Positions 18,396 through 46,846 of a DNA stretch of 64,000 bases are shown in pieces. The DNA is from Patescibacteria group bacterium (GTDB lineage: Bacteria; Patescibacteriota; Patescibacteriia; JAHIZJ01). Location: positions 523,504 to 587,503 of the forward strand of contig JBAZUB010000001.1 in assembly GCA_041661625.1 (NCBI GenBank). Reading direction: 5' to 3'. Within the stretch, counting starts at the first letter, position 1, and the number at the start of each line of letters is the position of its first letter. A program made the translations under genes and the position numbers. The notes under the pieces are model-generated. The model was given only the letters and a program-made list of their open reading frames with translations. It made no database searches and was not told where the DNA came from.

Positions 18396-18449
18396 ACCAC
18401 ATCTGAGTGTTTGATTATTAACCCCACTAAATGGGGAGAGGAAACGACT

Positions 18450-18644
18450 ATGCAAAAACTGCAAATCATTGGCCTAGGAAGTGGCCTGCTATTGGCGACG
18501 TTATTTGTGGTAGTAGCTGGTTGGCTGACACAGCCCAAACCGGCTGAAGCCAGAACTGAAATTACGTACGGACAACTGAAATTGTGTTACCACGATTGTG
18601 GCAATGATCACGACTGCTTAGCTCGCTGCTTAGCGAAGAACTAG
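18450..18644 (+). CDS. Cys-rich secreted peptide paralog 1 (signal peptide + C-x3-C-x6-C-x3-C core)
   Basis: SD ggagaggaa; signal with AEA cleavage motif; core LKLCYHDCGNDHDCLARCLAKN. Confidence 0.55.
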   Translation: MQKLQIIGLGSGLLLATLFVVVAGWLTQPKPAEARTEITYGQLKLCYHDCGNDHDCLARCLAKN

Positions 18645-18706
18645 CATTAATAGTTATTGAACTATTTACACGTAATCACCCTTAGGGGGGGTCGAGGAAA
18701 TAACTT

Positions 18707-18904
18707 ATGACAAGAAAGCGTCTTATCAGCCTAGGGTTTGGCTTGCTGGTTTCGGCCATATTTGTGGTCGCAGCGGGTGTATTTTTCCAGCCCAAACTGG
18801 CGGAAGCATCAAATAGAATGACTATAGGTCGGATTAAGTATTGTTACCACGAATGCGGCAACGATCAAGCCTGCCTGGATCGATGTCTAGCTAAGGATCA
18901 GTAA
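18707..18904 (+). CDS. Cys-rich secreted peptide paralog 2
   Basis: SD gaggaaa; signal ...KLAEA; core IKYCYHECGNDQACLDRCLAKDQ. Confidence 0.55.
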   Translation: MTRKRLISLGFGLLVSAIFVVAAGVFFQPKLAEASNRMTIGRIKYCYHECGNDQACLDRCLAKDQ

Positions 18905-18980
18905 ATATATTATCGGTACAGTACCGGTTTAAATATATCAGTGCTAATTATTTATCTCATATAGAGAAAAGGAATGGTGT

Positions 18981-19199
18981 ATGTCAAAGATACGTTTGCT
19001 CGGCATGGCCATTGGCCTGCTCGTCGTATCCCTCTTCGTCGCCGGTATTGGCGTGATGGCCAAACCTAAACCGGCTGAAGCGACCTGGGGTAGGCTAAAG
19101 TATTGTTACGAACAGTGCGGCAATAATTCTGACTGCATTGCACGGTGTATGGGCAAAACTCAAAATGCCAGCCAAGAGGGCGGCGGCTCAGACTGGTAG
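18981..19199 (+). CDS. Cys-rich secreted peptide paralog 3
   Basis: SD aaaggaatgg; signal ...KPAEA; core LKYCYEQCGNNSDCIARCMGK plus tail. Confidence 0.55.
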   Translation: MSKIRLLGMAIGLLVVSLFVAGIGVMAKPKPAEATWGRLKYCYEQCGNNSDCIARCMGKTQNASQEGGGSDW

Positions 19200-22876: not shown

Positions 22877-23347
22877 ATGTTAGCAATTAGACTCTCACCA
22901 ACCGGCAAGAAAGGGCAGAAATTCTTCCGCGTCATCGTCTCCGAAAAAACCAAGGATGTTTTCGGCGACTACATTGAACTGCTCGGCAACTACAATCCGC
23001 ACCCGAATCCGGCTCAGGCGACACTCAAAGCCGAACGGATAAAATATTGGCTGTCTCAAGGAGCTCAAGCCTCGCCCACCGTGCACAATCTTTTGGTAGA
23101 TCAAAAAATAATTGACGAACCGAAAGTGACCAGCTGGAAGCCCAAGAAGAAAGAGGTCAGCCCCGAAGAGGCCACCAAGGCAGCCACCGCTTCCGAGCCA
23201 GCCAAAGCTGAATCGATCGTAGAAGCCACATCAGCACCGGCCGAGCCAGCCCCTGAAGTGACTCCCACGCCTGAACCGATTAAACCCGCGCCAGCCGCCG
23301 AAACTGCGCCGACGCCAGCGCCAGCTGAGCCGAAACCAGCGGAATAG
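22877..23347 (+). CDS. rpsP: 30S ribosomal protein S16 with Ala/Pro/Glu-rich C-terminal extension
   Basis: AIRLSPTGKKGQKFFRVIVSEK...ELLGNYNPHP...KAERIKYWLSQGAQAS matches S16; low-complexity PAPE tail. Confidence 0.85.
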   Translation: MLAIRLSPTGKKGQKFFRVIVSEKTKDVFGDYIELLGNYNPHPNPAQATLKAERIKYWLSQGAQASPTVHNLLVDQKIIDEPKVTSWKPKKKEVSPEEATKAATASEPAKAESIVEATSAPAEPAPEVTPTPEPIKPAPAAETAPTPAPAEPKPAE

Positions 23348-23446: not shown

Positions 23447-23689
23447 GCCCTACAATACTAACCTTTGGCCCTATTGATGGGTCCTCGGCCCGGGGAGATG
23501 CGACAGGCACTGGTTATGAAGAGGGCTGGCGTACCTTGCAGATGCGCTCCGAGGGGAGCGTTTTCGTACGAGGCGAATCGCAACGCTTCGCGTTTGACCT
23601 GAAGCCTAGGGAGACAGTCGCAGAGGAGCAATCCTTCCCAACGTCTCCCTTCATATTTCTTGATCCTTTCATCATAAGGAGTGTACCCG
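23447..23689 (+). ncRNA. candidate structured non-coding leader / template RNA associated with the reverse transcriptase
   Basis: ~240 nt between the predicted TSS and the RT ATG with no ORF and multiple stable hairpins (agggagac...gtctccct 8 bp; gcgaa-tcgcaacgc-ttcgc; GC-rich stems around cggcccgggg). Ends with SD aaggag. Confidence 0.35.
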
Positions 23690-24793
23690 ATGCTCCGTAG
23701 CAGCCAGAGGTACTATTCGTTCGTCAACCCGCGCCAGTTTGCGCTCCCCTCTGACCCGCGTGTTGTGATGCGGGTGTCGGGCTGTGCAGCACTCCTCAAG
23801 GAGGTGCGGATCGGCCAGGCATTTCTTGCATCGATCCTGACAAATCCTGATCTTCACTGGCATCGCCGCATCGTTACAGGTGGGCGCAGTTCGCGCAAGG
23901 GAAAACAGCGCATTTGTTTCGTGGCAAGCGGCGAGCTCCGGTGGTACCAGAACAGACTGTGGAACCTCATGCGCTATATCCTTTCCGTCCGGAACGGACA
24001 TCTGCTCATCGCGCAAGAGCCGTGCCACTTGTATCGGAACATCAGAACGACCCAGTCGAGTGAGGGAACCGATTTCCCGGCAACAGCATACAACACCGGG
24101 TGCAATGTCATTCGCAACGCCCGATGGCACCGCCACAATCAGTCAAGCTGGTGTCTTGACATCTCGGGTGCATTCGCATCCATCCGCATGAAGCACTTGT
24201 ACCGCTTTCTGCTCCGCAAGCAGTTCCCGCCCGATCTAGCATGGATTATCTGCCGGATGTTCACCTATAACGGCGGACTTCCGCAGGGTGGCCCGTACTC
24301 ACCCTTCATCTACAACCTGCTCATGCAGCGGTTTGATGAAACTGTTGCGGCTGCGATCGGCGCTCCGACGAAAACTGTGACATTCCATCGAGCCAAACTG
24401 GAGGGATTTCCATACAGCGGTCCGATATATACGCGATACGGTGACGACCTCTGCTTCTCCCACCCGGATGAAGAATTCCCTGATGCGCTCAAGGGAACCA
24501 TCGACCGAGTGATAAGAGAACACCACCTGATTCTCAACGCGACAAAAACGCGCGAGGGTAGACATGGGATCATGGAACTTCCTGGCGTGGTGATTGTACA
24601 CGGACGCGTACGGCCACCTTCGGCTTATGTCACCCGTGTATGTACGGCTGCCGACCAAGGAAACCTCACCTCCATTCAGCGCTGCGGACACCGCGGCTAC
24701 CTCCTCACGTTCGGGCGGGCGGGCAGACTCCGATGCCTACGGCAACGGATTAACCTGCGATCCAAGCCGCGCTACGATCAACTTCCGTTCTAA
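23690..24793 (+). CDS. reverse transcriptase (RT domain only; retron/DRT-like, not DGR, no maturase/endonuclease)
   Basis: RT motifs in order: RICFVASGELRWYQNRLWNLMRYIL (motif 1/2-like), NARWH...WCLDISGAFASI (motif 3, catalytic D), LPQGGPYSPFIYNLL (motif 4, QGxxxSP), YTRYGDDLCFS (motif 5, YxDD), LILNATKTREG (motif 6). SD aaggag 8 nt upstream. Own terminator downstream. Confidence 0.8.
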   Translation: MLRSSQRYYSFVNPRQFALPSDPRVVMRVSGCAALLKEVRIGQAFLASILTNPDLHWHRRIVTGGRSSRKGKQRICFVASGELRWYQNRLWNLMRYILSVRNGHLLIAQEPCHLYRNIRTTQSSEGTDFPATAYNTGCNVIRNARWHRHNQSSWCLDISGAFASIRMKHLYRFLLRKQFPPDLAWIICRMFTYNGGLPQGGPYSPFIYNLLMQRFDETVAAAIGAPTKTVTFHRAKLEGFPYSGPIYTRYGDDLCFSHPDEEFPDALKGTIDRVIREHHLILNATKTREGRHGIMELPGVVIVHGRVRPPSAYVTRVCTAADQGNLTSIQRCGHRGYLLTFGRAGRLRCLRQRINLRSKPRYDQLPF

Positions 24794-33833: not shown

Positions 33834-33869
33834 GGGCGATTAGCTCAGGTGGTTAGAGCGCGTCACTGA
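33834..33869 (+). pseudogene. exact copy of the 5' half of tRNA-Ile(GAT), nt 1-35, ending within the anticodon
   Basis: gggcgattagctcaggtggttagagcgcgtcactga is identical to the 5' 36 nt of the intact gene at 33929. Confidence 0.7.
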
Positions 33870-33928: not shown

Positions 33929-34005
33929 GGGCGATTAGCTCAGGTGGTTAGAGCGCGTCACTGATAATGACGAGGTCCCAGGTTCGAGTCCTGGATCGCC
34001 CACCA
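33929..34005 (+). tRNA. tRNA-Ile (anticodon GAU), CCA encoded
   Basis: Cloverleaf: acceptor gggcgat/atcgccc, D-arm gctcaggtggttagagc, anticodon arm cgtca-ctGATaa-tgacg, T-arm ccagg-ttcgagt-cctgg, discriminator A, CCA. Confidence 0.9.
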
Positions 34006-34045: not shown

Positions 34046-34086
34046 TAATGACGAGGTCCCAGGTTCGAGTCCTGGATCGCCCACCA
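34046..34086 (+). pseudogene. exact copy of the 3' half of tRNA-Ile(GAT), nt 36-76 incl. CCA
   Basis: taatgacgaggtcccaggttcgagtcctggatcgcccacca is identical to the 3' 41 nt of the intact gene; together with 33834-33869 it reconstitutes a full tRNA. Confidence 0.7.
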
Positions 34087-34108
34087 GCCTACGCCAAGGC
34101 TTCGTCTG

Positions 34109-34713: not shown

Positions 34714-35880
34714 ATGTCAACGATGATAGCATTATCGTATATGGCTCCATCGGCTGAACTTAAAACACAATTAGTATCCCTACTTCCAGTTTGGACAATC
34801 TGTTTACTGATGTTTTTTGGGTTGTGCGCCGGCGTTTATTTATTCCAGGCAAAACCAACGACTAACGCACTCCCGACGGACATAGCCAACGAACCAACTA
34901 CCCCAAACAATCCCACCAAACCACTGCCCGCCATTGAATCCAAGCGTGAACTGACTTTTTTCGCGGTTGGTGACATTATGCTATCTCGAACTGTGTCGGA
35001 TAAAATACGTAAATATGGTTTTAATTATCCGTTCGCTAAAACAAACGAATATCTCAATTCAGCTGATTTTGCTTTTGGTAATCTGGAAACGTCGATTACG
35101 GCTGGTCCCAACATTACTGCCGGCATGATGAGTTTTCGCGCTGATCCCGGCGTGGAGAATGCTTTGAAGCGGGCTAACTTCCAGGTCGTTTCATTGGCCA
35201 ACAATCACACTCCAAACTTTGGCCAGAATGGTCTTTTGGATACATTCAGCTATTTGAAAAAGGCCGGTATTTCTTATGCCGGAGCCGGATCCAACAGTAT
35301 CGAAGCGCATCAACCGGCTATCATCGAACGTAACGGGATTAAATTAGCCTTCCTGGCCTACAACGATACCGATGTGGTTCCTGCCTCCTACGGTGCTAGT
35401 GCCAACCGAGCCGGTACCGCCCTAATGAATATTACCGAACTAAAAAAAGATATCGCCGCCATTAAGCCGACGGTCGACTTTGTGATTGTCTCAATGCATA
35501 GTGGTACGGAATATACTTCCGCACCAAATAATCGACAAACCGATTTCGCCCATGCCGCTATCGATGCCGGCACGGAATTGGTGATCGGCCATCATCCGCA
35601 TGTAGTTCAAACGATCGAAACATACAAAGACAAATTGATTATGTACAGCCTGGGTAATTTTGTGTTTGACCAGATGTGGTCGGAAGATACCCGCCATGGT
35701 GTAACCGCAAAAATAATTGTCGACGAAGATGGCGTTGAACAAGCCGCGTTCTCACCAATTATTATTGATGATTACTCCCAACCTCGTCCGGCTGCACCCG
35801 GTGAAGCATCGGCTATACTAAAACGGCTAGACGCAAATCATCCCCCAACCGCGATTGAATTATGGGAGCCAAAACGGTAA
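34714..35880 (+). CDS. CapA/PgsA-family (poly-gamma-glutamate capsule biosynthesis-like) metallophosphatase
   Basis: N-terminal TM, VGDIMLSRTV and LANNHT motifs, and GHHPHV typical of CapA family. Confidence 0.65.
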   Translation: MSTMIALSYMAPSAELKTQLVSLLPVWTICLLMFFGLCAGVYLFQAKPTTNALPTDIANEPTTPNNPTKPLPAIESKRELTFFAVGDIMLSRTVSDKIRKYGFNYPFAKTNEYLNSADFAFGNLETSITAGPNITAGMMSFRADPGVENALKRANFQVVSLANNHTPNFGQNGLLDTFSYLKKAGISYAGAGSNSIEAHQPAIIERNGIKLAFLAYNDTDVVPASYGASANRAGTALMNITELKKDIAAIKPTVDFVIVSMHSGTEYTSAPNNRQTDFAHAAIDAGTELVIGHHPHVVQTIETYKDKLIMYSLGNFVFDQMWSEDTRHGVTAKIIVDEDGVEQAAFSPIIIDDYSQPRPAAPGEASAILKRLDANHPPTAIELWEPKR

Positions 35881-35925: not shown

Positions 35926-35954
35926 TTGACAAAACGTCGTTTTTCAGCTATAAT
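35926..35954 (+). promoter_or_regulatory. consensus sigma70-type promoter for adhesin-like gene A
   Basis: TTGACA -17 nt- TATAAT. Confidence 0.55.
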
Positions 35955-36011: not shown

Positions 36012-37631
36012 ATGTTATCAAACGATACCAAACCAAAAAGAGACAACGTGACGCGTTGTTTTTTTATTGTCGATCGTAAACCAAATAGTTTACTTTTGTA
36101 TGCAGTCACTGTTGTGATGATCGGTTTTGTATTTATTTTAACTAACCGTCCCACGCCAGCCAAAGCCGATACGACTCCTGTAATTGACTATGCTCCTAGT
36201 GCCATACAGAACGGTCAGATTGTAACCATTAACGGAACTGGGTTTGGAGTAAAAAGCCCGGTCGAACCCCTACGTTATGACGACTTCCAAGACGGGACGA
36301 TCGGACAACGTATAAATGATCAGGCCAGTGGCGGATGGTTTACACAAGCATTCGTGCACTACCCGTACTATTCAACCGAGTCACAACGCGTTATGGGCGA
36401 CGTCGTTGCTACCCAGCATTATGACGTAACCGACTACAACCAAAATATAGGTTTGCAAGAAATAAACCCGCCCTATAAGCACATGTACACTAGCATGTAC
36501 ATCCACCGGGACGACATCAGCGGTGATGCCAAATACAGCACCAATGTAAAGCTTTGGAGCAGGTTCGAAGCCGATGCGGGTGATTATATTTACCTTCCTC
36601 AAGCCCGCTGTGAGTCCCAACCCAGCAATGGACAGGGCCTCATGGTCGGATACGACCGCAATCAGATTGCCTCATGCAGTACCTGGTATGATATGTCACC
36701 CTGGTGGGAAAACGAGTTCTCGGGTTGGGTGCGTTCGGAAAGATACATTGATGCGGGGACTATAAATGGCAACGATTGGGTGCAGTGGTTTCGTGAAGAT
36801 TTACAGACCGTATCAGAAACGGGTCCTGGATGCGGTAGTCTTTTAGTGACTCCCCTCGATCTTAGTATGCTATATATCGGCAACTATTGGCGAGCTGAAA
36901 ACGCTCAGCAGGAGTCTAAAACATATACCAGCGAACTTTATGTGGACACCACCCAAGCCCGTGTCGAGATCGGCAATACCTCAACCTGGGATACGAACAC
37001 TCATCGTGAGATTCAAATACCCCACACCACTTGGAATGACGACCAGATTCAATTCACCGTCAACCAAGGCACTTTCACCGACGGTGAGTCGGCCTACCTC
37101 TATGTGGTAGATGAGAATGGAGTGGTAAATACCACCGGTTATCCAATTACTTTCGGGGGTATCGCCTCAAATATTCCCCCGGTTTTAGCCAGCATTGGTA
37201 ATAAGTCTCTTCATGAACAAGAGACCCTGACGATCAACGTGTTAGCTTCAGACGATGATCCGGAAGATACGCTGACTCTGTCAGCTTCCAATCTTCCTAC
37301 CGGCGCTACTTTTACAGATAATGATGGTGGATCGGGTGCCTTCTCTTGGACACCGACCGATCAACAGGCCAATATATATTCTAACATACACTTCGAAGTC
37401 ACGGACGGAACCGACACGGATACCGAAGATATTACTATTACCGTATTGGATGGAGCGGCTGACTGTACTCCGGCCTGGGATTGTTCGAATTGGTCTGTTT
37501 GCGCTGATTCGATTCAAACCCGATCCTGCCATGATGACAACAATTGCGGTTCCGATGCCGGACGGCCGGTGGAATCGGCCGAGTGCGACAGTACGGCACC
37601 GGGGGCGGCGGTAGATTTGGTGGCTAGTTAA
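36012..37631 (+). CDS. secreted adhesin-like protein A: signal/TM, IPT/TIG domain, variable middle, cadherin-like (putative Ig) domain, Cys-rich TSP1-like C-terminal module
   Basis: VTINGTGFG (IPT); ...LASDDDPEDTLTLSASNLPTGATFTDNDGGSGAFSWTPTDQQANIYSNIHFEVTDG (dystroglycan-type cadherin-like); CTPAWDCSNWSVCADSIQTRSCHDDNNCG. Confidence 0.7.
   Translation: MLSNDTKPKRDNVTRCFFIVDRKPNSLLLYAVTVVMIGFVFILTNRPTPAKADTTPVIDYAPSAIQNGQIVTINGTGFGVKSPVEPLRYDDFQDGTIGQRINDQASGGWFTQAFVHYPYYSTESQRVMGDVVATQHYDVTDYNQNIGLQEINPPYKHMYTSMYIHRDDISGDAKYSTNVKLWSRFEADAGDYIYLPQARCESQPSNGQGLMVGYDRNQIASCSTWYDMSPWWENEFSGWVRSERYIDAGTINGNDWVQWFREDLQTVSETGPGCGSLLVTPLDLSMLYIGNYWRAENAQQESKTYTSELYVDTTQARVEIGNTSTWDTNTHREIQIPHTTWNDDQIQFTVNQGTFTDGESAYLYVVDENGVVNTTGYPITFGGIASNIPPVLASIGNKSLHEQETLTINVLASDDDPEDTLTLSASNLPTGATFTDNDGGSGAFSWTPTDQQANIYSNIHFEVTDGTDTDTEDITITVLDGAADCTPAWDCSNWSVCADSIQTRSCHDDNNCGSDAGRPVESAECDSTAPGAAVDLVAS
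36951..37603 (+). repeat. copy 1 of ~653-bp segmental duplication (3' 500 bp 100% identical to copy 2)
   Basis: Direct comparison with 38500-39151: ~10 substitutions in the first 150 bp, none thereafter. Confidence 0.85.
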
Positions 37632-37634
37632 AAT

Positions 37635-39173
37635 ATGTCGAGCTTAAACCATAAAAACATCTTAAGAATATTAACACTGATATTTTCTATTGTCGGTAGT
37701 GTTTTTGTTTTGTTTAATTTTCCAACACGGGCTAAGGCGGATACGACTCCTGAAATAATCTTTATGCCTAGTACCATACAGAACGGTCAGAGCGTGACGA
37801 TTAATGGAAGTGGGTTTGGGATAAAATATCCGGTTGAACCAACAAAATGGGATACATTTGACGTTGGTTTAAACGAGGCCCTCCTAGGCTCTACCCAGCC
37901 TGAGTGGATAGCGTTTCAGCAAGGCGGGGCTAAATATGATAGCACATATTATCATAGTGGCCCTTTTTCAGTCGGTAATAAGCTCACCCCAGAATCACAG
38001 TGGGCAACAAATTATTTTCAATTCACACCCACGGATAACATATTCGTTTCTTATTGGTGGCGCACCGCTTACACTGATATCGACGACTATGGCATTACAA
38101 AACTAACCAGAATAACATCAAGCCCAGCCGCAGGTGGAGAAGGTATTTATGACGGGGTCGGCACAACAGCTCTGACCAATATGAATCCACGGTATAATTC
38201 AATACCGTATCTGTTTTATCAAAACACTAGCAGTCCCGTTGCGCCACCATTAGCCGAACTTACCGTTCCTTATAACGAATGGGCGCGAATCGACACCCAC
38301 ACCAAACGTTCGACGGCTGGAGTTTCCGATGGTTCTGTTATGACGGAATGCGTCGGCCATGACATTCATGCGCTGATATCGCAAGAGAACTGCTCAATCG
38401 GATATGACTATCATTGGGACACAGTATTACTTGGTCTGATGGCGGCAAATGTCGCTGGATATTATGAACTGTACTTAGATGACATCTATATTGACACTAC
38501 CCAAGCCCGTGTCGAGATCGGCAATACCTCAACCTGGGATACGAATACCCATCGTGAGATCCAAATACCCCACACCACCTGGAATGACGACCAGATTCAA
38601 TTCACCGTCAACCAAGGTACCTTCACTAATGGTGAGTCGGCCTATCTCTATGTGGTAGATGAGAATGGAGTGGTAAATACCACCGGTTATCCAATTACTT
38701 TCGGGGGTATCGCCTCAAATATTCCCCCGGTTTTAGCCAGCATTGGTAATAAGTCTCTTCATGAACAAGAGACCCTGACGATCAACGTGTTAGCTTCAGA
38801 CGATGATCCGGAAGATACGCTGACTCTGTCAGCTTCCAATCTTCCTACCGGCGCTACTTTTACAGATAATGATGGTGGATCGGGTGCCTTCTCTTGGACA
38901 CCGACCGATCAACAGGCCAATATATATTCTAACATACACTTCGAAGTCACGGACGGAACCGACACGGATACCGAAGATATTACTATTACCGTATTGGATG
39001 GAGCGGCTGACTGTACTCCGGCCTGGGATTGTTCGAATTGGTCTGTTTGCGCTGATTCGATTCAAACCCGATCCTGCCATGATGACAACAATTGCGGTTC
39101 CGATGCCGGACGGCCGGTGGAATCGGCCGAGTGCGACAGTACGGCACCGGGTATTGTATCCGACCTCCGATAA
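37635..39173 (+). CDS. secreted adhesin-like protein B (paralog of A; same IPT N-terminus and identical cadherin-like + Cys-rich C-terminus, different middle)
   Basis: Starts 4 nt after the A stop; the C-terminal 220 aa are identical to A except D->N. Confidence 0.7.
   Translation: MSSLNHKNILRILTLIFSIVGSVFVLFNFPTRAKADTTPEIIFMPSTIQNGQSVTINGSGFGIKYPVEPTKWDTFDVGLNEALLGSTQPEWIAFQQGGAKYDSTYYHSGPFSVGNKLTPESQWATNYFQFTPTDNIFVSYWWRTAYTDIDDYGITKLTRITSSPAAGGEGIYDGVGTTALTNMNPRYNSIPYLFYQNTSSPVAPPLAELTVPYNEWARIDTHTKRSTAGVSDGSVMTECVGHDIHALISQENCSIGYDYHWDTVLLGLMAANVAGYYELYLDDIYIDTTQARVEIGNTSTWDTNTHREIQIPHTTWNDDQIQFTVNQGTFTNGESAYLYVVDENGVVNTTGYPITFGGIASNIPPVLASIGNKSLHEQETLTINVLASDDDPEDTLTLSASNLPTGATFTDNDGGSGAFSWTPTDQQANIYSNIHFEVTDGTDTDTEDITITVLDGAADCTPAWDCSNWSVCADSIQTRSCHDDNNCGSDAGRPVESAECDSTAPGIVSDLR
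38500..39151 (+). repeat. copy 2 of ~653-bp segmental duplication
   Basis: See copy 1. Confidence 0.85.
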
Positions 39174-39319
39174 AGCAGTTATAAATTACATTAAATCAAT
39201 CTGGGCATATTTTACCGATGGGGCTATTTAAGGTACAATGTTTAACCATCAGGACTACGATAAGATAATCATATAGTACCCAACTATCGAAACATGGAGC
39301 CAAACAACAAACGAATTCA

Positions 39320-41116
39320 ATGATTCAAGTATTAATAAAAACAGTGTCAAAAAAACCTCGTATCGTACTTGTGGTACTATTTGTCACACTAAGCTATGTA
39401 ACGATATTGCATAATACTCCTCAAGCTCGTGCAGACGCGTCTACCTACTATGTTCGGCCAACTGATTGCAGCGATGATGGCTCAGGATCATCGAATTTGC
39501 CTTACTGTACGATTCAGAAAGCGGCCAACACTGCCCGGGCGGGCGATACGGTTCTTTTGTACGACGGCATATACCGCTCGAGTACGAATACCACCTTCTC
39601 ATATTCCGGGACGGAATCGCAACCTATTACATTTCGGGCAATTGGAGACGGTGCCATCTTAACCGGAAACGTGCCGCTGGATGAATCATTGTTTCAAAAA
39701 ACTGCTGGCTTCACTTCGGTCTATGAAATAACTGAAGCGCAAATCCCCGCTTCCGCTTATTACCAGGGTGTGTTTGATATTGTAAGAAGCGGACTCGTCC
39801 AGCTAGACGGGCAGTCGGTGTATACCGGATATCGAAGTGACCAGTTTAATAATATCCTCCACGAAAACTCCGCCGTACCAGTAGCTAACATAGCCGCGGT
39901 CGACTCGACAACTTATTCGTGGTACTTCGATACCGAATCGCGCAAACTCTACATCCATACCCGCGAGGGTGACGCCCCGACCACACATGAGTGGGAAGTT
40001 AATCGACCTTTTGGAGGACGATTTCTCACGCTGGCGGCGTCGGTAAAGAACCTGGTGTTTGATGGTCTCATATTTCGCTATGCCTCGATCTATTTTGGTA
40101 ATAGAGGTAATGAAAATATTACCGTGCAAAATTTCGAAACCATAGGATCTGGAATGTCGATCGACGGAGGGGCAATCAATGTGACCTTCCAGAACTGCCA
40201 TATTCACGATACGCTGGTGGCGGTCAATGCGGGATATGACGGGTTGAATGTTTCGGAAAGTACGGGTGCTAAAATAATAAACTGTGTGATAGAGCGTGGC
40301 TGGAATAATATCCAGTGGGGCAATAACACTAACACGTTATTTGACCGGGTAATTTCACGCGATTGCCCAAATCATCCTATGAATGGATCGAACTCAATAA
40401 ATATGAGCGTGTCAAATTCTATCATCTTGCGTGGCCAAGAAGGTTTTTATATCCACGGCGATGTTGGTATGACCATTGGGAATTCATTGTTTTCTAGTTT
40501 ACTCATGGAACGTAGTTCAAATTATGAGTGTCGCATTCCCAATCAAATCACATTAAGAAATAATATTTTTAGTGGCTACTATATAAACGCCGTTGATTGT
40601 CCGGCTTTCACTTGGGCGGAAGTTCTGCTCGATTCCGATGATAATTACTTTCTTCCCACTGATGGTCCAGACTCCAACTGGCTCGCGCAGACCGGTTGGT
40701 TTGAGATCTGTCATACTACCCAAGACACACTTACGATCTGCCAGGGTATAACCGGACAGGACATGAACTCGCGGACAGCCGACGGAACACCGCTTTGGAC
40801 GGATTGGACAAGTGATAACTTTCATCTGCTTTCAGGCGCGCTCGTTGTAGATACTGGCGTCAACGTTGGTAATTCTCATGATTACGATAATGTCCCGCGT
40901 CCCAAAGGTGCTGGTTTCGATATTGGCGCTTTCGAATACGACCCCAATTGCACTCCCAACTGGTGGTGCACCAATTGGTCGGTGTGTGCTGATTCACAAC
41001 AAACCCGATCCTGCCATGATGATAATAATTGCGGTTCGGATGCTGGCCGGCCTGTTGAGTCAGCCGATTGCGATAGCACGGCGCCAGGGGTAGTGGTAGA
41101 TTTGATGGCCAACTAG
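39320..41116 (+). CDS. secreted right-handed beta-helix (pectate-lyase-fold) protein C sharing the Cys-rich TSP1-like C-terminal module of A/B
   Basis: Signal peptide; parallel beta-helix repeat pattern (NxxxxNCxIHD, GxxNxxxxNC); C-terminal CTPNWWCTNWSVCADSQQTRSCHDDNNCGSDAGRPVESADCDSTAPGVVVDLMAN ~80% nt identical to A's tail. Confidence 0.65.
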   Translation: MIQVLIKTVSKKPRIVLVVLFVTLSYVTILHNTPQARADASTYYVRPTDCSDDGSGSSNLPYCTIQKAANTARAGDTVLLYDGIYRSSTNTTFSYSGTESQPITFRAIGDGAILTGNVPLDESLFQKTAGFTSVYEITEAQIPASAYYQGVFDIVRSGLVQLDGQSVYTGYRSDQFNNILHENSAVPVANIAAVDSTTYSWYFDTESRKLYIHTREGDAPTTHEWEVNRPFGGRFLTLAASVKNLVFDGLIFRYASIYFGNRGNENITVQNFETIGSGMSIDGGAINVTFQNCHIHDTLVAVNAGYDGLNVSESTGAKIINCVIERGWNNIQWGNNTNTLFDRVISRDCPNHPMNGSNSINMSVSNSIILRGQEGFYIHGDVGMTIGNSLFSSLLMERSSNYECRIPNQITLRNNIFSGYYINAVDCPAFTWAEVLLDSDDNYFLPTDGPDSNWLAQTGWFEICHTTQDTLTICQGITGQDMNSRTADGTPLWTDWTSDNFHLLSGALVVDTGVNVGNSHDYDNVPRPKGAGFDIGAFEYDPNCTPNWWCTNWSVCADSQQTRSCHDDNNCGSDAGRPVESADCDSTAPGVVVDLMAN

Positions 41117-42034: not shown

Positions 42035-42601
42035 ATGCCCGCATCAAACGATACAAGTACCACGGAGCCAACCGAAGCGGACATCCAGATCATTGTGTCT
42101 CGAGCCCAGCAAGGTGACGCGGACGGCTTCGCCCGCTTATTTGATATCTTCAGTAATCGGATCTACCGGTTCTTCCGAGTTCGTCTGTCTGACAATGAGA
42201 CCGCCGAAGACTTGACCCAGGTGGTTTTTCTAGAGATGCTCCAGGCTTTGGGCCGCTACAAAACTCATCCAGACGCCAAATTTTCGACCTGGTTGTTTCA
42301 GATCGCCCGCTTTCGATTGATTGACCACTATCGCCAGCATCGTCAGCACGTTTCAATCGACGATCTGCCGGCTCAAGCGCACCCAAATCTGTCCGTTGAC
42401 GCGGTGGCCTACGAGCTGCCGGTGGTCGATGATCTACTGAATCAATTGCCGGAAAACTACCGCACGATATTGCACCTGCGCTACCAGGAACAACTTAGTA
42501 CCAGCGAAATTGCTAAAGTTCTGAAAACCAGCGCCATCAATGTCCGAGTGCTGCATCACCGGGCAATTCGCGCCGCGCGTAAATTATTGCCACCAACCTA
42601 A
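42035..42601 (+). CDS. ECF-type RNA polymerase sigma-70 factor
   Basis: Region 2 (IYRFFRVRLSDNETAEDLTQVVFLEMLQAL...FSTWLFQIARFRLIDHYRQ) and region 4 HTH (LSTSEIAKVLKTSAINVRVLHHRAIRAARKLL). Confidence 0.8.
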   Translation: MPASNDTSTTEPTEADIQIIVSRAQQGDADGFARLFDIFSNRIYRFFRVRLSDNETAEDLTQVVFLEMLQALGRYKTHPDAKFSTWLFQIARFRLIDHYRQHRQHVSIDDLPAQAHPNLSVDAVAYELPVVDDLLNQLPENYRTILHLRYQEQLSTSEIAKVLKTSAINVRVLHHRAIRAARKLLPPT

Positions 42602-42605
42602 TTAT

Positions 42606-43739
42606 ATGAATATTCCATCCACCTCCGGATCAAAGCCCGATATCGCCGACCGGCTATGCCAAAACGCAAATGTCTGCCTGACATCGGATGCGCAACGGCG
42701 CATTCGGGAGCGTTTGTTGTCCGAATATCAGGAGCAGAAATACCGCTATTCAATGCCTCCGGTTTCCGCAACGCCCCGGCATCGCCTGGCTCCGGTAATT
42801 ATCTCCGTGGCCTTCGTGGTAATAATTGGCGCCGGGATTGGCACTGTTTCGGCTGCCAACGACGCTAAACCGGGCGATCTCTTATTTGGCATCGACCGAG
42901 CCGTAGAACGCGTCCAGCTGGCGGTTACGCCCGATCAGATCCAACGGGCCAAGCTGCTGGCCGACATTGCCCGGGAACGGGAACAAGAGCACCGAGATTT
43001 GAAGTTGACCGACAATACCGCGGCCGCCCAAAAAGCCGAACAGCTGGCCGTGGCCGCTGTTAGCCGGGCGGTTGAGACCAATGACACCGTTCGAGCTGAA
43101 TTGATCGAGCGGGGCGACAGTGCGGCCGTGACCGACTTGAACCAGGTTCGTAACGAAGTGGACTCGCTGACTAATTCAGAACCCAGCCCGGCCACCACAG
43201 GACTGACCGGCGTCAGCATAAAGATACAACAGCACTCGGCGACTGTAACCCTGAAACTGAACGCGGCTGTCGCTACCTTTCAGCTTCCAACCGACAATTT
43301 AGCCGAAATTGAACAAAGTATTGCCCAACGCACCGGCATCGGCTTGCCGGAGATCAAACAAATGGTCGTACTCGAGCCGGATCACGCGGCCGATGGCATA
43401 CCGAATTCCGAAACGCCCACTGGTGCCAACGATTCAAACACTAATTCCACGAATGATGGCCAACCGGTAAGTGATATTACTGCTGCCCCATCTACCGCCG
43501 ATACCAATTCAGCCGACCCGTCGCCGGTAAATGGTAGTACAATCTTGCCGGCAGGGTGGGACATAACAGTAACCACCCAGGACGACACGGCCAGCGTTGG
43601 AATCACGCAAAACGGTTTGGCGATCTTTGCCTGGACTCTCCCGACGGCTGACGCCGAGCAGATTATTGCCAGCATCAGCCAAAGAACTGGTTTAAGTGCT
43701 GATCAAATTCGTTCAACCTGGCATCTCGTAGCTGAGTAG
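42606..43739 (+). CDS. putative anti-sigma factor / single-pass membrane protein with extracytoplasmic domain
   Basis: Starts 4 nt after the ECF sigma stop; one TM (LAPVIISVAFVVIIGAGIGTVSA); Thr/Ala-rich periplasmic part. Alternative upstream start at 42540 overlaps the sigma gene. Confidence 0.45.
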   Translation: MNIPSTSGSKPDIADRLCQNANVCLTSDAQRRIRERLLSEYQEQKYRYSMPPVSATPRHRLAPVIISVAFVVIIGAGIGTVSAANDAKPGDLLFGIDRAVERVQLAVTPDQIQRAKLLADIAREREQEHRDLKLTDNTAAAQKAEQLAVAAVSRAVETNDTVRAELIERGDSAAVTDLNQVRNEVDSLTNSEPSPATTGLTGVSIKIQQHSATVTLKLNAAVATFQLPTDNLAEIEQSIAQRTGIGLPEIKQMVVLEPDHAADGIPNSETPTGANDSNTNSTNDGQPVSDITAAPSTADTNSADPSPVNGSTILPAGWDITVTTQDDTASVGITQNGLAIFAWTLPTADAEQIIASISQRTGLSADQIRSTWHLVAE

Positions 43740-43785: not shown

Positions 43786-44814
43786 ATGCAGCACTTGCCG
43801 CACCAAAATCATCGTCTATTGCCCTGGCCGATCGAATCGGCAGATTGGCCGGCTTTTCGTTACGCGCAGATTAATCGCGCCGTGTTTCATGATTTGATCG
43901 ACAATTGGTCACAGGCCACCACTTTGCCACAAACGGTTCGTGCCGGTTTGGCTAATACGTGGCCCTTGTCTTTTGAAGTTAGAAGATTGGAATCAAGCGA
44001 CCAACGCACCACGAAAGCGCTGATGACGCTGGCCGATGGTGCGGTAATTGAGTCAGTATTGATGCGCTACCCAAAACGCAATAGCGTCTGTGTTTCCTGC
44101 CAAGTAGGGTGCGCAGTTGGCTGCAGTTTCTGCGCCACTGGCCGGCTGGGTTTTCGGCGCAATTTAACGCCCTGGGAAATCATCAGCCAGGTCTTGCTAT
44201 TCAGCCGCCAATTGAAAGTCAAAAACGAGCGCGTCGACAGCGTCGTGTTTATGGGTATGGGTGAGCCCTTCCTGAACTACGAATCAGTTCTACCTGCAAT
44301 CCGATTGCTCAATGACCCGGCCGGCCTCAACCTGGGCGCCCGGCATATGTCGATTTCCACCAGCGGAATAGTTCCGGGTATCAGACGTTTTCTCAAAGAA
44401 CGCCTCGAGGTCAATTTGGCAATATCTTTGCACGCCCCCAATGACCGTCTGCGCACCCGCCTGATGCCGATCAACACCACCTACCCGCTCAAGACGCTAA
44501 TGTCCGCTGCGTCTGAATACGTGTCCAAAGCTCGACGCCGTTTGATGTTTGAATATATAATGATAGCGGGTCTGAACGATACCGACGATTGCGCCGAAGA
44601 GTTGGCAGCGCTGTTAAAACATCCGCTATATTTCGTGAATATCATACCGTACAATCTGACAGGCATTTATTCGCCCACTCCCGCCCACCAAGTAAAGCGC
44701 TTCATCAATCTGCTGCGCCGGCAACACGTCAGCGTTACCCAACGAGCCGAGTTCGGCCAGGAAATTATGGCAGCCTGCGGCCAGCTGGCCGGTCGGTCAG
44801 GACAGTCAAAGTAA
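43786..44814 (+). CDS. rlmN: 23S rRNA (adenine2503-C2)-methyltransferase RlmN (radical SAM)
   Basis: CQVGCAVGCSFCATG radical-SAM CxxxCxxC; MGMGEPFLNY and SGIVP motifs. Confidence 0.85.
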   Translation: MQHLPHQNHRLLPWPIESADWPAFRYAQINRAVFHDLIDNWSQATTLPQTVRAGLANTWPLSFEVRRLESSDQRTTKALMTLADGAVIESVLMRYPKRNSVCVSCQVGCAVGCSFCATGRLGFRRNLTPWEIISQVLLFSRQLKVKNERVDSVVFMGMGEPFLNYESVLPAIRLLNDPAGLNLGARHMSISTSGIVPGIRRFLKERLEVNLAISLHAPNDRLRTRLMPINTTYPLKTLMSAASEYVSKARRRLMFEYIMIAGLNDTDDCAEELAALLKHPLYFVNIIPYNLTGIYSPTPAHQVKRFINLLRRQHVSVTQRAEFGQEIMAACGQLAGRSGQSK

Positions 44815-44839: not shown

Positions 44840-46846
44840 ATGTTTTTACAACGACGCTTGGACAGTTACGTAGCTCTGGTATCCAGTCTGATTATTGTCT
44901 TTATCGGCGCTACATTGTATATCGGGTTGGATCACAAGCTAAATCAAACAGCCGATACTAAACCATCCCCGAGGGAACTCCACTACCCCGGCAATGGTTA
45001 TTTTACCAGCGCCGACGATTTCAAGAGTTTTCTCCAAGAATCATCGAGTGTCAACGCTCGCAATTATTCCAACGCCAGGGTAACTGACTTAGCATTGCCG
45101 AATATGGCCGAGCAGGATGCGGCTGGTATTCTAAAATCGACCAGCGGCGCCAGCCGATATTCACAAACCAATGTCCAAGTGGCGGGCATCGACGAACCTG
45201 ATATCGTCAAGACAAATGGCCAAGAAATATTTATCTCTACCGAAAGCCCCTATTATGGCGCGGTTGAACCAGCTATACTGGAAGAAGACCAAGCGGTCAA
45301 GAGCAGCGCATCGAGTGAAACGGCCTTGCCCGCCCCCACCACTCCCACCCGGATTGTTTCTGCGCTTCCGGCTGACAAAGCCGCCGTCGCCAGCACGTTG
45401 GCCAAAACTGGCCCACTACTCTATGCGCAAGATACACTGGTTGTTTTTTCCACCGATAAAAAAGTGACGGGCTATAACGTAGCCGATCAAAATAAGCCAA
45501 CCCAAAGCTGGACTTACGACATTGATGGCTCGTATCTGACCGCGCGCCTGTGGCAGAATAAAATCTATCTGATTGTCGACGCTAGTATCGACGAATCAAA
45601 TCCCTGTCCGATCCAACCTCTAGCGACCGATCATACAACTATCACTATTCCTTGCAATCGGGTATACCATCCAGCCGCTGATACGGCCGTCGACTCAACC
45701 TATTCAGTCATGAAGATCGACCCCGCTACCGGCCAAGTTGAACAGTCGCTTTCGTTTGTCGGCAGTACCGACGCGTCAACTGTTTACGTATCGCCGAATG
45801 CTATTTATCTGACCCATCCCGCCGTGATCGACTATGCGGCTTACTCTTACACCTCGATGATTGAATCGGCGCTGACCCTGCTGCCTACCAGCGTTCAAGA
45901 TAAAATCACCCGGCTTAATACTTATGATATAAGCATCGAGGCCAAATATACGGAACTCCAATCAATCCTGGATGACTACTACAACTCGCTAACCGCCGAG
46001 GATCGTCTGCGCCAGCAAACCGCGATCGAAAAAAGCCTCGACGCGTACTTCCAGGAACATCGCCGCGAATTGGAGAAAACCGGCCTGACAAAAATAACCC
46101 TATCTGACCTGACAGTTACCGCTACCGGCGAAGTGCCCGGTTATCCCCTCAACCAATTCTCAATCGATGAATACCAGGGTAACCTGCGCATTGCCACCAC
46201 ATCAAGCAGTCAGTTCTCTTCTCTGGGCTCGGGGGACACCGCCAACGATATCTATGTCTTCGATAGCAAATTGGACAAGATCGGCCAGCTGCAAAATCTC
46301 GGATTGGGCGAGACAATATACTCCGCCCGTTTTGTCGGCAACCGCGGTTATTTAGTTACCTTCCGGCAGACCGATCCATTCTTCGTCCTCGACTTGTCCG
46401 ATCCCCGCAAACCTGAATTGAAGGGTGAATTGAAAATCCCCGGCTACTCATCATATCTTCACCCCCTAACCGATACATTAGTCCTGGGAGTTGGGGCTGA
46501 GAGCTCCCATGCGAAGTTATCGCTGTTTGACGTGACCGACGCCAATAAACCCATCGAGCTGGCAAATCAGAAATTGGATGACTACTGGTCCGAGGCGCAG
46601 AATAATCATCACGCCTTCCTTCAGGATGCACAACATAAAGTGTTCTTCCTGCCGGGCGGAACTAATGGTTACGTGTATAGCTACGACGCCAACACCCTGA
46701 CCCTGGCGAAAAAAGTAGATGGCCTGTCCATGAAACGGGCGGTATATCTCGATAACAATCTCTACATAATCGGCGAGTCGAGCCTGGTGGTGCTGGATGA
46801 AACCAATTGGAATCAAGTGGGTCAGCTTCAATATCCGACGAATTGA
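44840..46846 (+). CDS. secreted protein with C-terminal beta-propeller domain (COG4880-like)
   Basis: N-terminal TM/signal; C-terminal repeats ...IYSARFVGNRGYLVTFRQTDPFFVLDLSDP... match the secreted beta-propeller family. Confidence 0.5.
   Translation: MFLQRRLDSYVALVSSLIIVFIGATLYIGLDHKLNQTADTKPSPRELHYPGNGYFTSADDFKSFLQESSSVNARNYSNARVTDLALPNMAEQDAAGILKSTSGASRYSQTNVQVAGIDEPDIVKTNGQEIFISTESPYYGAVEPAILEEDQAVKSSASSETALPAPTTPTRIVSALPADKAAVASTLAKTGPLLYAQDTLVVFSTDKKVTGYNVADQNKPTQSWTYDIDGSYLTARLWQNKIYLIVDASIDESNPCPIQPLATDHTTITIPCNRVYHPAADTAVDSTYSVMKIDPATGQVEQSLSFVGSTDASTVYVSPNAIYLTHPAVIDYAAYSYTSMIESALTLLPTSVQDKITRLNTYDISIEAKYTELQSILDDYYNSLTAEDRLRQQTAIEKSLDAYFQEHRRELEKTGLTKITLSDLTVTATGEVPGYPLNQFSIDEYQGNLRIATTSSSQFSSLGSGDTANDIYVFDSKLDKIGQLQNLGLGETIYSARFVGNRGYLVTFRQTDPFFVLDLSDPRKPELKGELKIPGYSSYLHPLTDTLVLGVGAESSHAKLSLFDVTDANKPIELANQKLDDYWSEAQNNHHAFLQDAQHKVFFLPGGTNGYVYSYDANTLTLAKKVDGLSMKRAVYLDNNLYIIGESSLVVLDETNWNQVGQLQYPTN

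Follow-up and report, generated by a model that had tools for sequence, protein, structure and literature searches.

Probable gene conversion and a widespread six-cysteine module in a putatively secreted, glycan-active protein family of a Patescibacteria genome

Gene conversion drives the concerted evolution of duplicated bacterial genes such as tufA/tufB and of surface-protein families. In candidate phyla radiation (CPR) bacteria and DPANN archaea, which rely on host-cell contact, most surface proteins are unannotated. We analyzed a 64,000-nt stretch of a Patescibacteria genome (positions 523,504 to 587,503 of contig JBAZUB010000001.1, hereafter the window), which carries three consecutive genes, A, B, and C, that an earlier note had described as adhesin-like and as sharing a C-terminal module. 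Our reading, to which we assign a probability of about 60%, is that the A-B-C locus is part of a Sec-secreted, disulfide-stabilized family of glycan-binding or glycan-cleaving proteins, the 3' ends of which have been homogenized by gene conversion and the module of which is a widespread tandem repeat. According to this proposal, nonallelic homologous recombination between tandem paralogs would have left one very recent tract of at least 506 bp in A and B, an older or partial tract upstream of it, and an exchange of the segment encoding an Ig/TIG-like (immunoglobulin-like) beta-sandwich with a third paralog at another locus. The constant 3' part would thus evolve in concert, while the jelly-roll bodies stay 27 to 35% identical.

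Recombination among the 3' ends

We compared A and B base by base at an offset of 1548. Their DNA is unalignable up to about 36938, and similarity starts at about 36939. There are three mismatches at 36942-36950 and 10 more at 36998-37097, the latter all transitions, nine of them synonymous and one a D>N replacement. The next 506 bp show no difference at all (Table 1) and, past the codons for ...STAPG, the two genes are fully divergent over their last 8-9 codons. These findings reproduce the duplicated 3' end previously described, with a divergent stretch leading into an identical one, and the 3' 665 nt of B are 98% identical to those of A. Differences are clustered, with 10 in 147 bp versus 0 in 506 bp (Fisher p = 2.6e-7), and the probability of finding none in 506 bp at the 10/147 rate is 3e-16. 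This clustering supports the view of the earlier note that the identical tract was made by very recent recombination or gene conversion. Independently, a repeat finder identified a three-copy family of 161 nt that also includes C, with 78% identity, in line with the value of about 80% first given for the module of C.

Similar relations were seen among paralogs encoded outside the window. Amino acid identity in the body is 35% between A and B, 27% between A and the paralog P0012, and 32% between B and P0012, but the 66-aa sandwich that follows is 98 to 100% identical among the three. The sandwiches of these three proteins are 83 to 85% identical to that of another paralog, P0271. At the DNA level, the sandwich segment of P0012 (in L001) is 95 to 96% identical to A and B, and that of P0271 (in L129) is 77 to 78% identical. 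For the DNA encoding the module and six further codons, identity is 73 to 87% in all paralog pairs except A-B, with mostly synonymous differences, while it reaches 99.3% for A-B. Within a 217-nt sandwich segment, P0012 is A-like at four sites that vary between A and B and B-like at six others. Since recombination is the sole process that yields such a mosaic, these paralogs have exchanged DNA. Clustered identity, sharp boundaries, and mosaic sites among at least three copies, by which gene conversion is recognized, are therefore all present. The simplest account of the tract pattern would be repeated nonallelic gene conversion, in which the latest A-B event appears to have covered at least 506 bp.

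We rejected a diversity-generating retroelement, in agreement with the earlier note: no repeat pair in the window has adenine-biased mismatches, and the A/B differences are nearly all C/T, in both directions. This pattern, together with the lack of a pair resembling template and variable repeats in the window, excludes such an element despite the presence of a reverse-transcriptase gene. That gene (RVT_1, E 4e-15; 23681-24793, + strand) lies between rpsP (22877-23347) and KH-domain/trmD genes, and candidate types for it are a retron, a group II remnant, or a diversity-generating retroelement with a distant target.

Payloads, six-cysteine module, and paralogs

The domain layout bears out the common architecture originally proposed for A and B. 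At the start of each of A, B, and C is a hydrophobic helix and then an A-K/R-A↓D site, which we read as a Sec signal peptide. A Pfam scan placed a He_PIG/Big_9 domain at aa 387-478 of A and aa 362-453 of B, above the gathering thresholds of both families (PF05345, 37.2 bits for a cut-off of 24, E 4e-9; PF17963, 34 bits for a cut-off of 23.6), which confirms the cadherin-like domain call made from the sequence. For IPT/TIG (PF01833), matches were only subthreshold, at the N termini. In a homology search, residues 1 to ~380 of A fell into a large family not annotated in Pfam. This ~360-aa family is found in Patescibacteria, DPANN archaea, and other phyla, and has a highly conserved C-terminal motif, DDIYIDNTQARVEIGN...AYLYVVD.NG..N..GYPITFG.

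An AlphaFold2 model of A was made with an alignment of 88 sequences. Fold comparison, with which Foldseek is concordant, showed that the center of A and B is a beta-jelly roll that can be superposed on polysaccharide lyases of families PL20, PL14, and PL36. Its neighbors are the PL36 enzyme Aly36B (6kcv), the PL20 glucuronan lyase 2zzj, the PL14 structures 5gmt/3a0n, and a TtX122A domain (8q28), followed by glycoside hydrolase family 16 enzymes and lectins. Sequence identity to the polysaccharide lyases is 10 to 13%, and the Pfam scan gave no match to PF14099 in A or B at E<=1. On the strength of the model, the payload would be lyase-like. Gene C has a precomputed match to PF22842 (Pel9A-like), a match to the GH120 xylosidase 3vst (E 3.7e-8), and subthreshold matches to chondroitinase B and DUF1565 in the Pfam scan of window proteins. 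It also has a choice-of-anchor Q domain (NF041518, 34.3 bits for a cut-off of 25) directly before the module. We read C as a right-handed beta-helix protein, Pel9A/chondroitinase-B-like; that it is a beta-helix of a fold other than that of A and B had been proposed before. The label adhesin-like, in contrast, gives way to a polysaccharide-lyase-type jelly roll in A and B and a pectate-lyase-type beta-helix in C.

We searched 1.84 billion representative proteins by phmmer, using the last 62 residues of A as a query. The module matched 2,799 clusters at E<=1e-3 and 549 at E<=1e-10, and many of the matched proteins have several matching stretches, up to 15 per protein. At least 2,799 clusters thus contain the module, often in tandem, and mainly from DPANN archaea and Patescibacteria. 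A pattern search in the best 144 matches found 489 instances, of which 405 have a length of exactly 41 aa. From 401 distinct copies of that length, we derived the consensus C-[TS]-[PE]-x-W-x-C-x-x-W-S-x-C-x-N-G-x-Q-T-R-T-C-T-D-x-N-N-C-G-T-x-x-x-K-P-x-x-x-Q-x-C, where Cys1, 7, 13, and 41 and Trp5 and 10 are invariant and Cys22 and 28, Arg20, Asp24, and Pro35 are 93 to 99% conserved. In the module-rich proteins, copies are usually in tandem in mid-protein and separated by 1-4-residue linkers. A hydrophobic segment is N-terminal in 115 of 136 of these proteins and C-terminal in 34. This layout has the appearance of an extracellular "beads-on-a-string" repeat, and the module at our locus, rather than being unique, is a single copy of this huge tandem-repeat family. 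Most likely, it acts as a rigid, disulfide-locked spacer or attachment unit.

A degenerate DNA pattern for the Cys/Trp/Asp spacing occurs at at least 120 loci in GTDB species genomes and, among the matches listed, these are overwhelmingly from Woese-, Pace-, Aenigm-, Nano-, and Micrarchaeota and Patescibacteria, with a few records otherwise labeled. A word-index homology search with the module alone returned a single protein, P0189, and none with a 60-module alignment. With a module-plus-tail alignment as query, no related locus was found in GTDB species genomes, and the window species or close relatives are apparently absent from GTDB species representatives. Looking up the clusters of module-rich proteins yielded no names. 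For the module, there was no match in Pfam-A (queries: A, B, and C; module-rich proteins; and, at E<=10, a single module or three in tandem), none in NCBIfam, and, with its profile, none among PDB chain sequences at E<=10. We also came across no published description of it in searches of the literature on thrombospondin or cysteine-rich repeats of Patescibacteria, CPR, and DPANN.

Further proteins with the same ending, for which the earlier note had suggested a check, occur in the same genome. Cluster look-ups identified A and B as MFA6198057.1 and MFA6198058.1 on a 697,186-bp contig, and three more module proteins, MFA6198261.1 (WC734_03870), MFA6198429.1, and MFA6198430.1 (WC734_04760), on a contig of 311,612 bp. 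The shared accession block and locus-tag prefix (WC734_) indicate a single metagenome-assembled genome of about 1.0 Mb, which thus contains at least three more paralogs. On the basis of these series, we rejected the reading that the 697-kb and 311-kb contigs belong to two related organisms exchanging DNA. P0271, which is identical to the product of the L129 gene, consists of a jelly roll and the module, and its gene lies between ftsK/rodZ-like genes and recA. P0012 has a jelly roll and the module without He_PIG, and P0010 has a beta-helix, He_PIG, and the module; their genes are adjacent and followed by a DsbA-like thioredoxin gene. The genome therefore combines a jelly roll or a beta-helix, with or without He_PIG, with the module and tail. 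As previously suggested, the module is a portable C-terminal unit, ending at least six paralogs on two catalytic-type folds as well as the 92-aa P0189, which is made only of a signal peptide, the module, and the tail. We propose a multigene family, with at least six members on the two contigs, that would have arisen by domain shuffling. The payload would be either a PL20/PL14/PL36-like jelly roll on an Ig/TIG-like sandwich or a pectate-lyase-type beta-helix, followed by an optional He_PIG and then, in every member, by one 41-aa six-Cys module and a 12-14-aa tail.

Two genes of the DsbA/Thioredoxin_4 type (L001, 12212-12928 and 17839-18573) are found beside P0012/P0010 and a gene resembling type IV secretion system pilins, on the second contig of the same genome. 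Such DsbA-type neighbors are consistent with extracytoplasmic disulfide formation in the six-Cys module.

Rival readings and the assembly

Several points weigh against our reading. First, with an identity of 10 to 13% to lyases, the jelly roll of A and B could be a lectin. Second, the assignment of both contigs to one genome depends on the accession and locus-tag series, and hence on binning. Third, AlphaFold2 models the module region with low confidence, as 3-4 short strands with a predicted local distance difference test score (pLDDT) of 60-70, and the tail as disordered (pLDDT <50). Fourth, no binding partner or anchor was found for the module and tail. Finally, the 100% identity of A and B could be overstated by the assembly, or the population could be structurally polymorphic.

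In the close clade, every member ends after the last Cys with D-S-T-A-P-G-x-[VI]-x-D-L-x(1-3). A (D-T-T)-A-P-x-A-P-x-x-L-x-V tail, directly following GYPITFG, ends at least 29 of the 70 base-family homologs with a locatable conserved core. The tail resembles, in its sequence, an orphan first strand of a fibronectin type III/Ig domain. We also observed that most of the ~360-aa jelly-roll/sandwich homologs (P0017-P0120) stop 12-26 residues past GYPITFG with a conserved Pro-rich peptide, either ...(DTT)APxAPxGLxV or ...PGPPGxPGxP, which is kept at the extreme C terminus across phyla. The tails of A, B, and C have neither a hydrophobic stretch nor a basic end, and match nothing in Pfam or NCBIfam. 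No known sorting or anchoring signal (LPXTG, PEP-CTERM, PGF-CTERM, type IX secretion system [T9SS] C-terminal domain, dockerin, or S-layer homology) was found at their ends, and a sortase- or exosortase-type signal is ruled out by the tail sequences. The idea of a sorting signal, raised originally as a question, is thus left with neither a known signal type nor a partner.

Could the module and the D-S-T-A-P-G-x-V-x-D-L tail instead be a new surface docking or retention signal which, like a dockerin, an S-layer homology domain, or a donated beta-strand, holds secreted enzymes on the envelope of the episymbiont or on its host? In the module/tail slot, the homolog P0103 has a type I dockerin (29.6 bits) and P0087 a T9SS sorting domain (Por_Secre_tail; 36.9 bits); by analogy, these and P0189 make a docking role conceivable. 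In this clade, moreover, the module always occurs once and at the C terminus, behind payloads of two unrelated folds, it follows choice-of-anchor Q in C, and tails of the same type recur in the base family. However, elsewhere the module is mostly internal and tandem, as expected of a spacer, 34 of the 136 module-rich proteins have their own C-terminal hydrophobic anchor, and the tail differs from paralog to paralog and is not part of the conserved conversion tract. With neither a partner nor a predicted structure for the tail, we consider a docking signal unlikely. A broader version appears more unlikely still, in which the module and a D-S/T-T-A-P...L tail would form an unrecognized surface-docking system of CPR and DPANN that tethers glycan-cleaving payloads at the symbiont-host interface, and the sandwich/He_PIG/module DNA would be a handle reshuffling payloads among paralogs and in populations.

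Another possibility is that the assembler threaded B through A's copy of the repeat, creating the 506-bp identity or the whole 3' half of B, and that B in reality has another end, such as a direct P0012-type module. Short-read assemblies of other data bear on this. In one, made with MEGAHIT (ERZ27249449), three contigs agree with the window at 100% and have an end precisely at the repeat. The 405-kb L006 ends at window position 37603, L002 starts at 37463 and holds the tail of A and the body of B, and the 133-kb L004 starts at 39011 and holds the tail of B, C, and 10 kb beyond. Logan contigs of SRR6484324 break alike, L007 ending at 36980 and L005 starting at 39122. Contigs that end at the repeat, with unique joins from A's tail to B and from B's tail to C, indicate that both exits from the repeat and A's entry into it are real. 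On the other hand, L006 runs unbroken through the whole repeat, where a second entry should break it, suggesting a single entry. L002, moreover, leaves the window sequence at 38703 and continues into a P0012-type module, then P0010, rather than into He_PIG. These two contigs leave the window version of B's 3' half without independent confirmation. Past 38703, L002 is 99.93% identical to another contig, and in a third sample contigs break inside a 123-bp stretch common to B and P0012.

The hybrid is an observation in its own right. Over positions 1-1417 of L002 (European Nucleotide Archive ERZ27249449, k141_1052516), the B body (100% identical to window 37463-38703) is joined to the He_PIG-less 3' end of P0012 (L001, 9482-9883), then P0010. 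Its product is the 371/414-aa hybrid P0268. Either the contig is chimeric, or the genome is truly recombinant or rearranged. As for the conflict at the B-body junction, either recombinant arrangements exist in the population or one of the assemblies is chimeric there.

Other assemblies have no record of the exact products of A and B, as an artifact would have it, and exact-product look-ups for A, P0002, and P0012 gave no match. However, the two distinct exits are each found at 100% identity in the independent contigs L002, L004, and L005, and with two exits the order seen in the window is the only single linear path. SNPs (single-nucleotide polymorphisms) specific to B lie <60 bp from the start of He_PIG, so any ordinary read would span the junction. 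The source metagenome has >265 contigs above 311 kb, to judge from contig numbering, which suggests long reads, and the mosaic SNPs show real recombination among these paralogs. An assembly artifact therefore has a small probability in our view.

Smaller still is the probability of programmed cassette variation, in which the constant 3' region would be a handle for swapping N-terminal binding domains and would diversify surface or host specificity within the population. Identity does change sharply from 27-35% to 98-100% at the same point in three paralogs and, besides the mosaic SNPs, the apparent B-body/P0012-3' hybrid in L002 and the break of third-sample contigs at the shared 123-bp stretch agree with such swapping. 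However, every copy is a full-length gene encoding its own signal peptide, A has a strong predicted promoter, and none is a silent cassette. We found no site-specific recombinase, invertase, silent cassette, or inverted-repeat pair at the A-B-C locus, and L002 may be a chimeric contig. P0271 is not homogenized, and the pattern therefore fits sporadic gene conversion. The cassette mechanism put forward in the earlier note is not upheld, and the constant part is the sandwich, He_PIG, and the module, with the tail outside the converted tract.

The module had also been called TSP1-like, and it shares with thrombospondin type-1 repeats six Cys, conserved Trp and Arg, a WSxC motif, a length of about 41 aa, and an extracellular, tandem arrangement. 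There was no match to TSP_1 (PF00090) for A, B, and C (E<=1), a single module or three in tandem (E<=10), or module-rich proteins. When aligned by hhalign with five thrombospondin repeats, the module gave a probability of 24.7% over 15 columns, covering WSxC...QxR. The W-x-x-W-x-x-W ladder and the CSxTCG before R-x-R are not seen in the 401 copies, which have two Trp, one Arg, and a CG that follows the Arg. Since no library match was found and the hhalign score is low, the likeness appears to be a resemblance of motifs only, and a diverged bacterial or archaeal thrombospondin type-1 repeat is improbable.

The locus and known systems

As can be seen in Table 1, A, B, and C are consecutive on the + strand. 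Their ORF (open reading frame) coordinates were reproduced from the sequence, and the gap between A and B is 3 nt instead of the 4 nt originally given. The promoter-like site lies 58 nt 5' of A. The locus has a GC content of 46.8 to 47.5%, slightly AT-richer than most of the window, and comes after a cluster of three tRNA genes. A six-frame motif scan of the window found three copies of the module only, those in A, B, and C.

Table 1. Positions of genes, repeats, and protein segments at the A-B-C locus (window coordinates)
Feature	Position	Strand	Details
Gene A	36012..37631	+	539 aa; ORF as earlier listed
Gene B	37635..39173	+	512 aa; NCBI MFA6198058.1
Gene C	39320..41116	+	598 aa
Sigma-70-type promoter-like site, TTGACA-17-TATAAT	35926..35954	+	12/12 match to consensus; putative function
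Gene A, parts	36012..37631	+	Signal/transmembrane helix aa 24-44; AKA↓D site at aa 52; Ig/TIG-like strands; polysaccharide-lyase-like beta-jelly roll to about aa 315; sandwich aa 316-381; He_PIG aa 387-478
Gene A, C-terminal parts			Cys module aa 485-525; tail aa 526-539
Gene C, parts	39320..41116	+	Signal peptide; right-handed beta-helix; choice-of-anchor Q aa 500-541; Cys module aa 544-584; tail
Candidate older/partial conversion tract in A (sandwich-coding)	36939..37097	+	13 differences vs. B 38487-38645; SNPs mosaic relative to P0012
Exact repeat R (506 bp), copy 1, gene A	37098..37603	+	Base-by-base comparison; end of sandwich, He_PIG, Cys module, and first 6 tail codons
Exact repeat R (506 bp), copy 2, gene B	38646..39151	+	Base-by-base comparison
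Six-Cys module of A, 41 aa	37464..37586	+	CTPAWDCSNWSVCADSIQTRSCHDDNNCGSDAGRPVESAEC; motif scan
Six-Cys module of B, 41 aa	39012..39134	+	Identical to that of A; motif scan
Six-Cys module of C, 41 aa	40949..41071	+	78% nt identity to that of A; most differences synonymous
C-terminal tail of A	37587..37628	+	DSTAPGAAVDLVAS
C-terminal tail of B	39135-39170	+	DSTAPGIVSDLR
C-terminal tail of C	41072-41113	+	DSTAPGVVVDLMAN

Directly 5' of A is a PGA_cap gene (34714-35880, + strand) with an N-terminal membrane segment, CapA-like and of the poly-gamma-glutamate capsule synthesis family, another envelope-related function next to the putatively secreted, glycan-active proteins. The 3' side has genes for an extracytoplasmic function-type sigma factor (42035-42601), a DUF5667 protein and possible anti-sigma factor (42540-43739, + strand), a radical-SAM protein (43786-44814), and a secreted Beta_propel protein of 668 aa (44840-46846, + strand). 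Two kilobases upstream of the locus, on each side of a tRNA-Ile(GAT) gene (33929-34005) there is an exact copy of one of its halves, the division being inside the anticodon: the 5' 36 nt are repeated at 33834-33869 and the 3' 42 nt at 34046-34087. The arrangement resembles a tRNA gene that has been split by an insert with a whole copy, or att-type duplications. Farther away, at 18411-19199 (+ strand), there are three tandem small ORFs (77, 65, and 72 aa) with a spacing of about 260 nt. All three products have a hydrophobic segment at the N terminus and a CY(H/E)xCGN(D/N)xxC(L/I)xRC motif at the C terminus. The ORFs lie just 3' of the gene for a 948-aa Peptidase_C25 and FlgD_ig protein (15482-18328) and appear to be a second family of small secreted Cys-containing paralogs.

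Gene conversion at A and B is in itself ordinary; noteworthy is the very large, uncataloged six-Cys repeat family common to DPANN and CPR. With thousands of clusters in both radiations and no entry in Pfam or NCBIfam, this 41-aa disulfide module deserves a family definition and a structure. In one 1-Mb genome it ends at least six secreted proteins with lyase-like payloads, which suggests degradation or recognition of glycans at the cell surface, and, through recombination, the constant 3' domains undergo concerted evolution as the payloads diverge. If the module or the tail were to act as an anchor, this would explain how secreted enzymes are retained without known sorting systems.

How does the locus compare with known systems? 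The He_PIG/Big_9 domain of A and B is an ordinary member of its family (PF05345, PF17963). Their jelly roll differs from the lyases of PL36, PL20, and PL14 (PF14099) by its lack of a Pfam match, its low sequence identity, and its junction to an Ig/TIG-like sandwich with a conserved ARVEIGN...GYPITF motif, and its fold neighbor TtX122A is itself a domain of unknown function. The module shares with thrombospondin type-1 and EGF-like repeats a size of 40-55 aa, six Cys, conserved Trp/Arg, and tandem extracellular beads; compared with the former, it has no profile match, another motif order and Trp/Arg number, and a prokaryotic spread in DPANN and CPR. Like the dockerin-bearing enzymes of cellulosomes and Haft's choice-of-anchor families (NF041518), the A-B-C family combines different glycan-active payloads with one small C-terminal module, in the place where homologs of the A/B payload hold a type I dockerin or a T9SS sorting domain and which in C is preceded by choice-of-anchor Q. 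In contrast to a dockerin, the module is a six-Cys unit with no EF-hand/dockerin sequence and no hydrophobic or charged sorting signal, has no known cohesin-like partner, and occurs in internal tandem arrays in other organisms. Finally, A and B share with tufA/tufB and surface-protein families sharp-edged identity tracts, mosaic SNPs, and a tandem arrangement. They differ in that 1) the homogenized part is restricted to the 3' constant domains, with payloads about 30% identical, and 2) exchange extends to a paralog at a distant locus.

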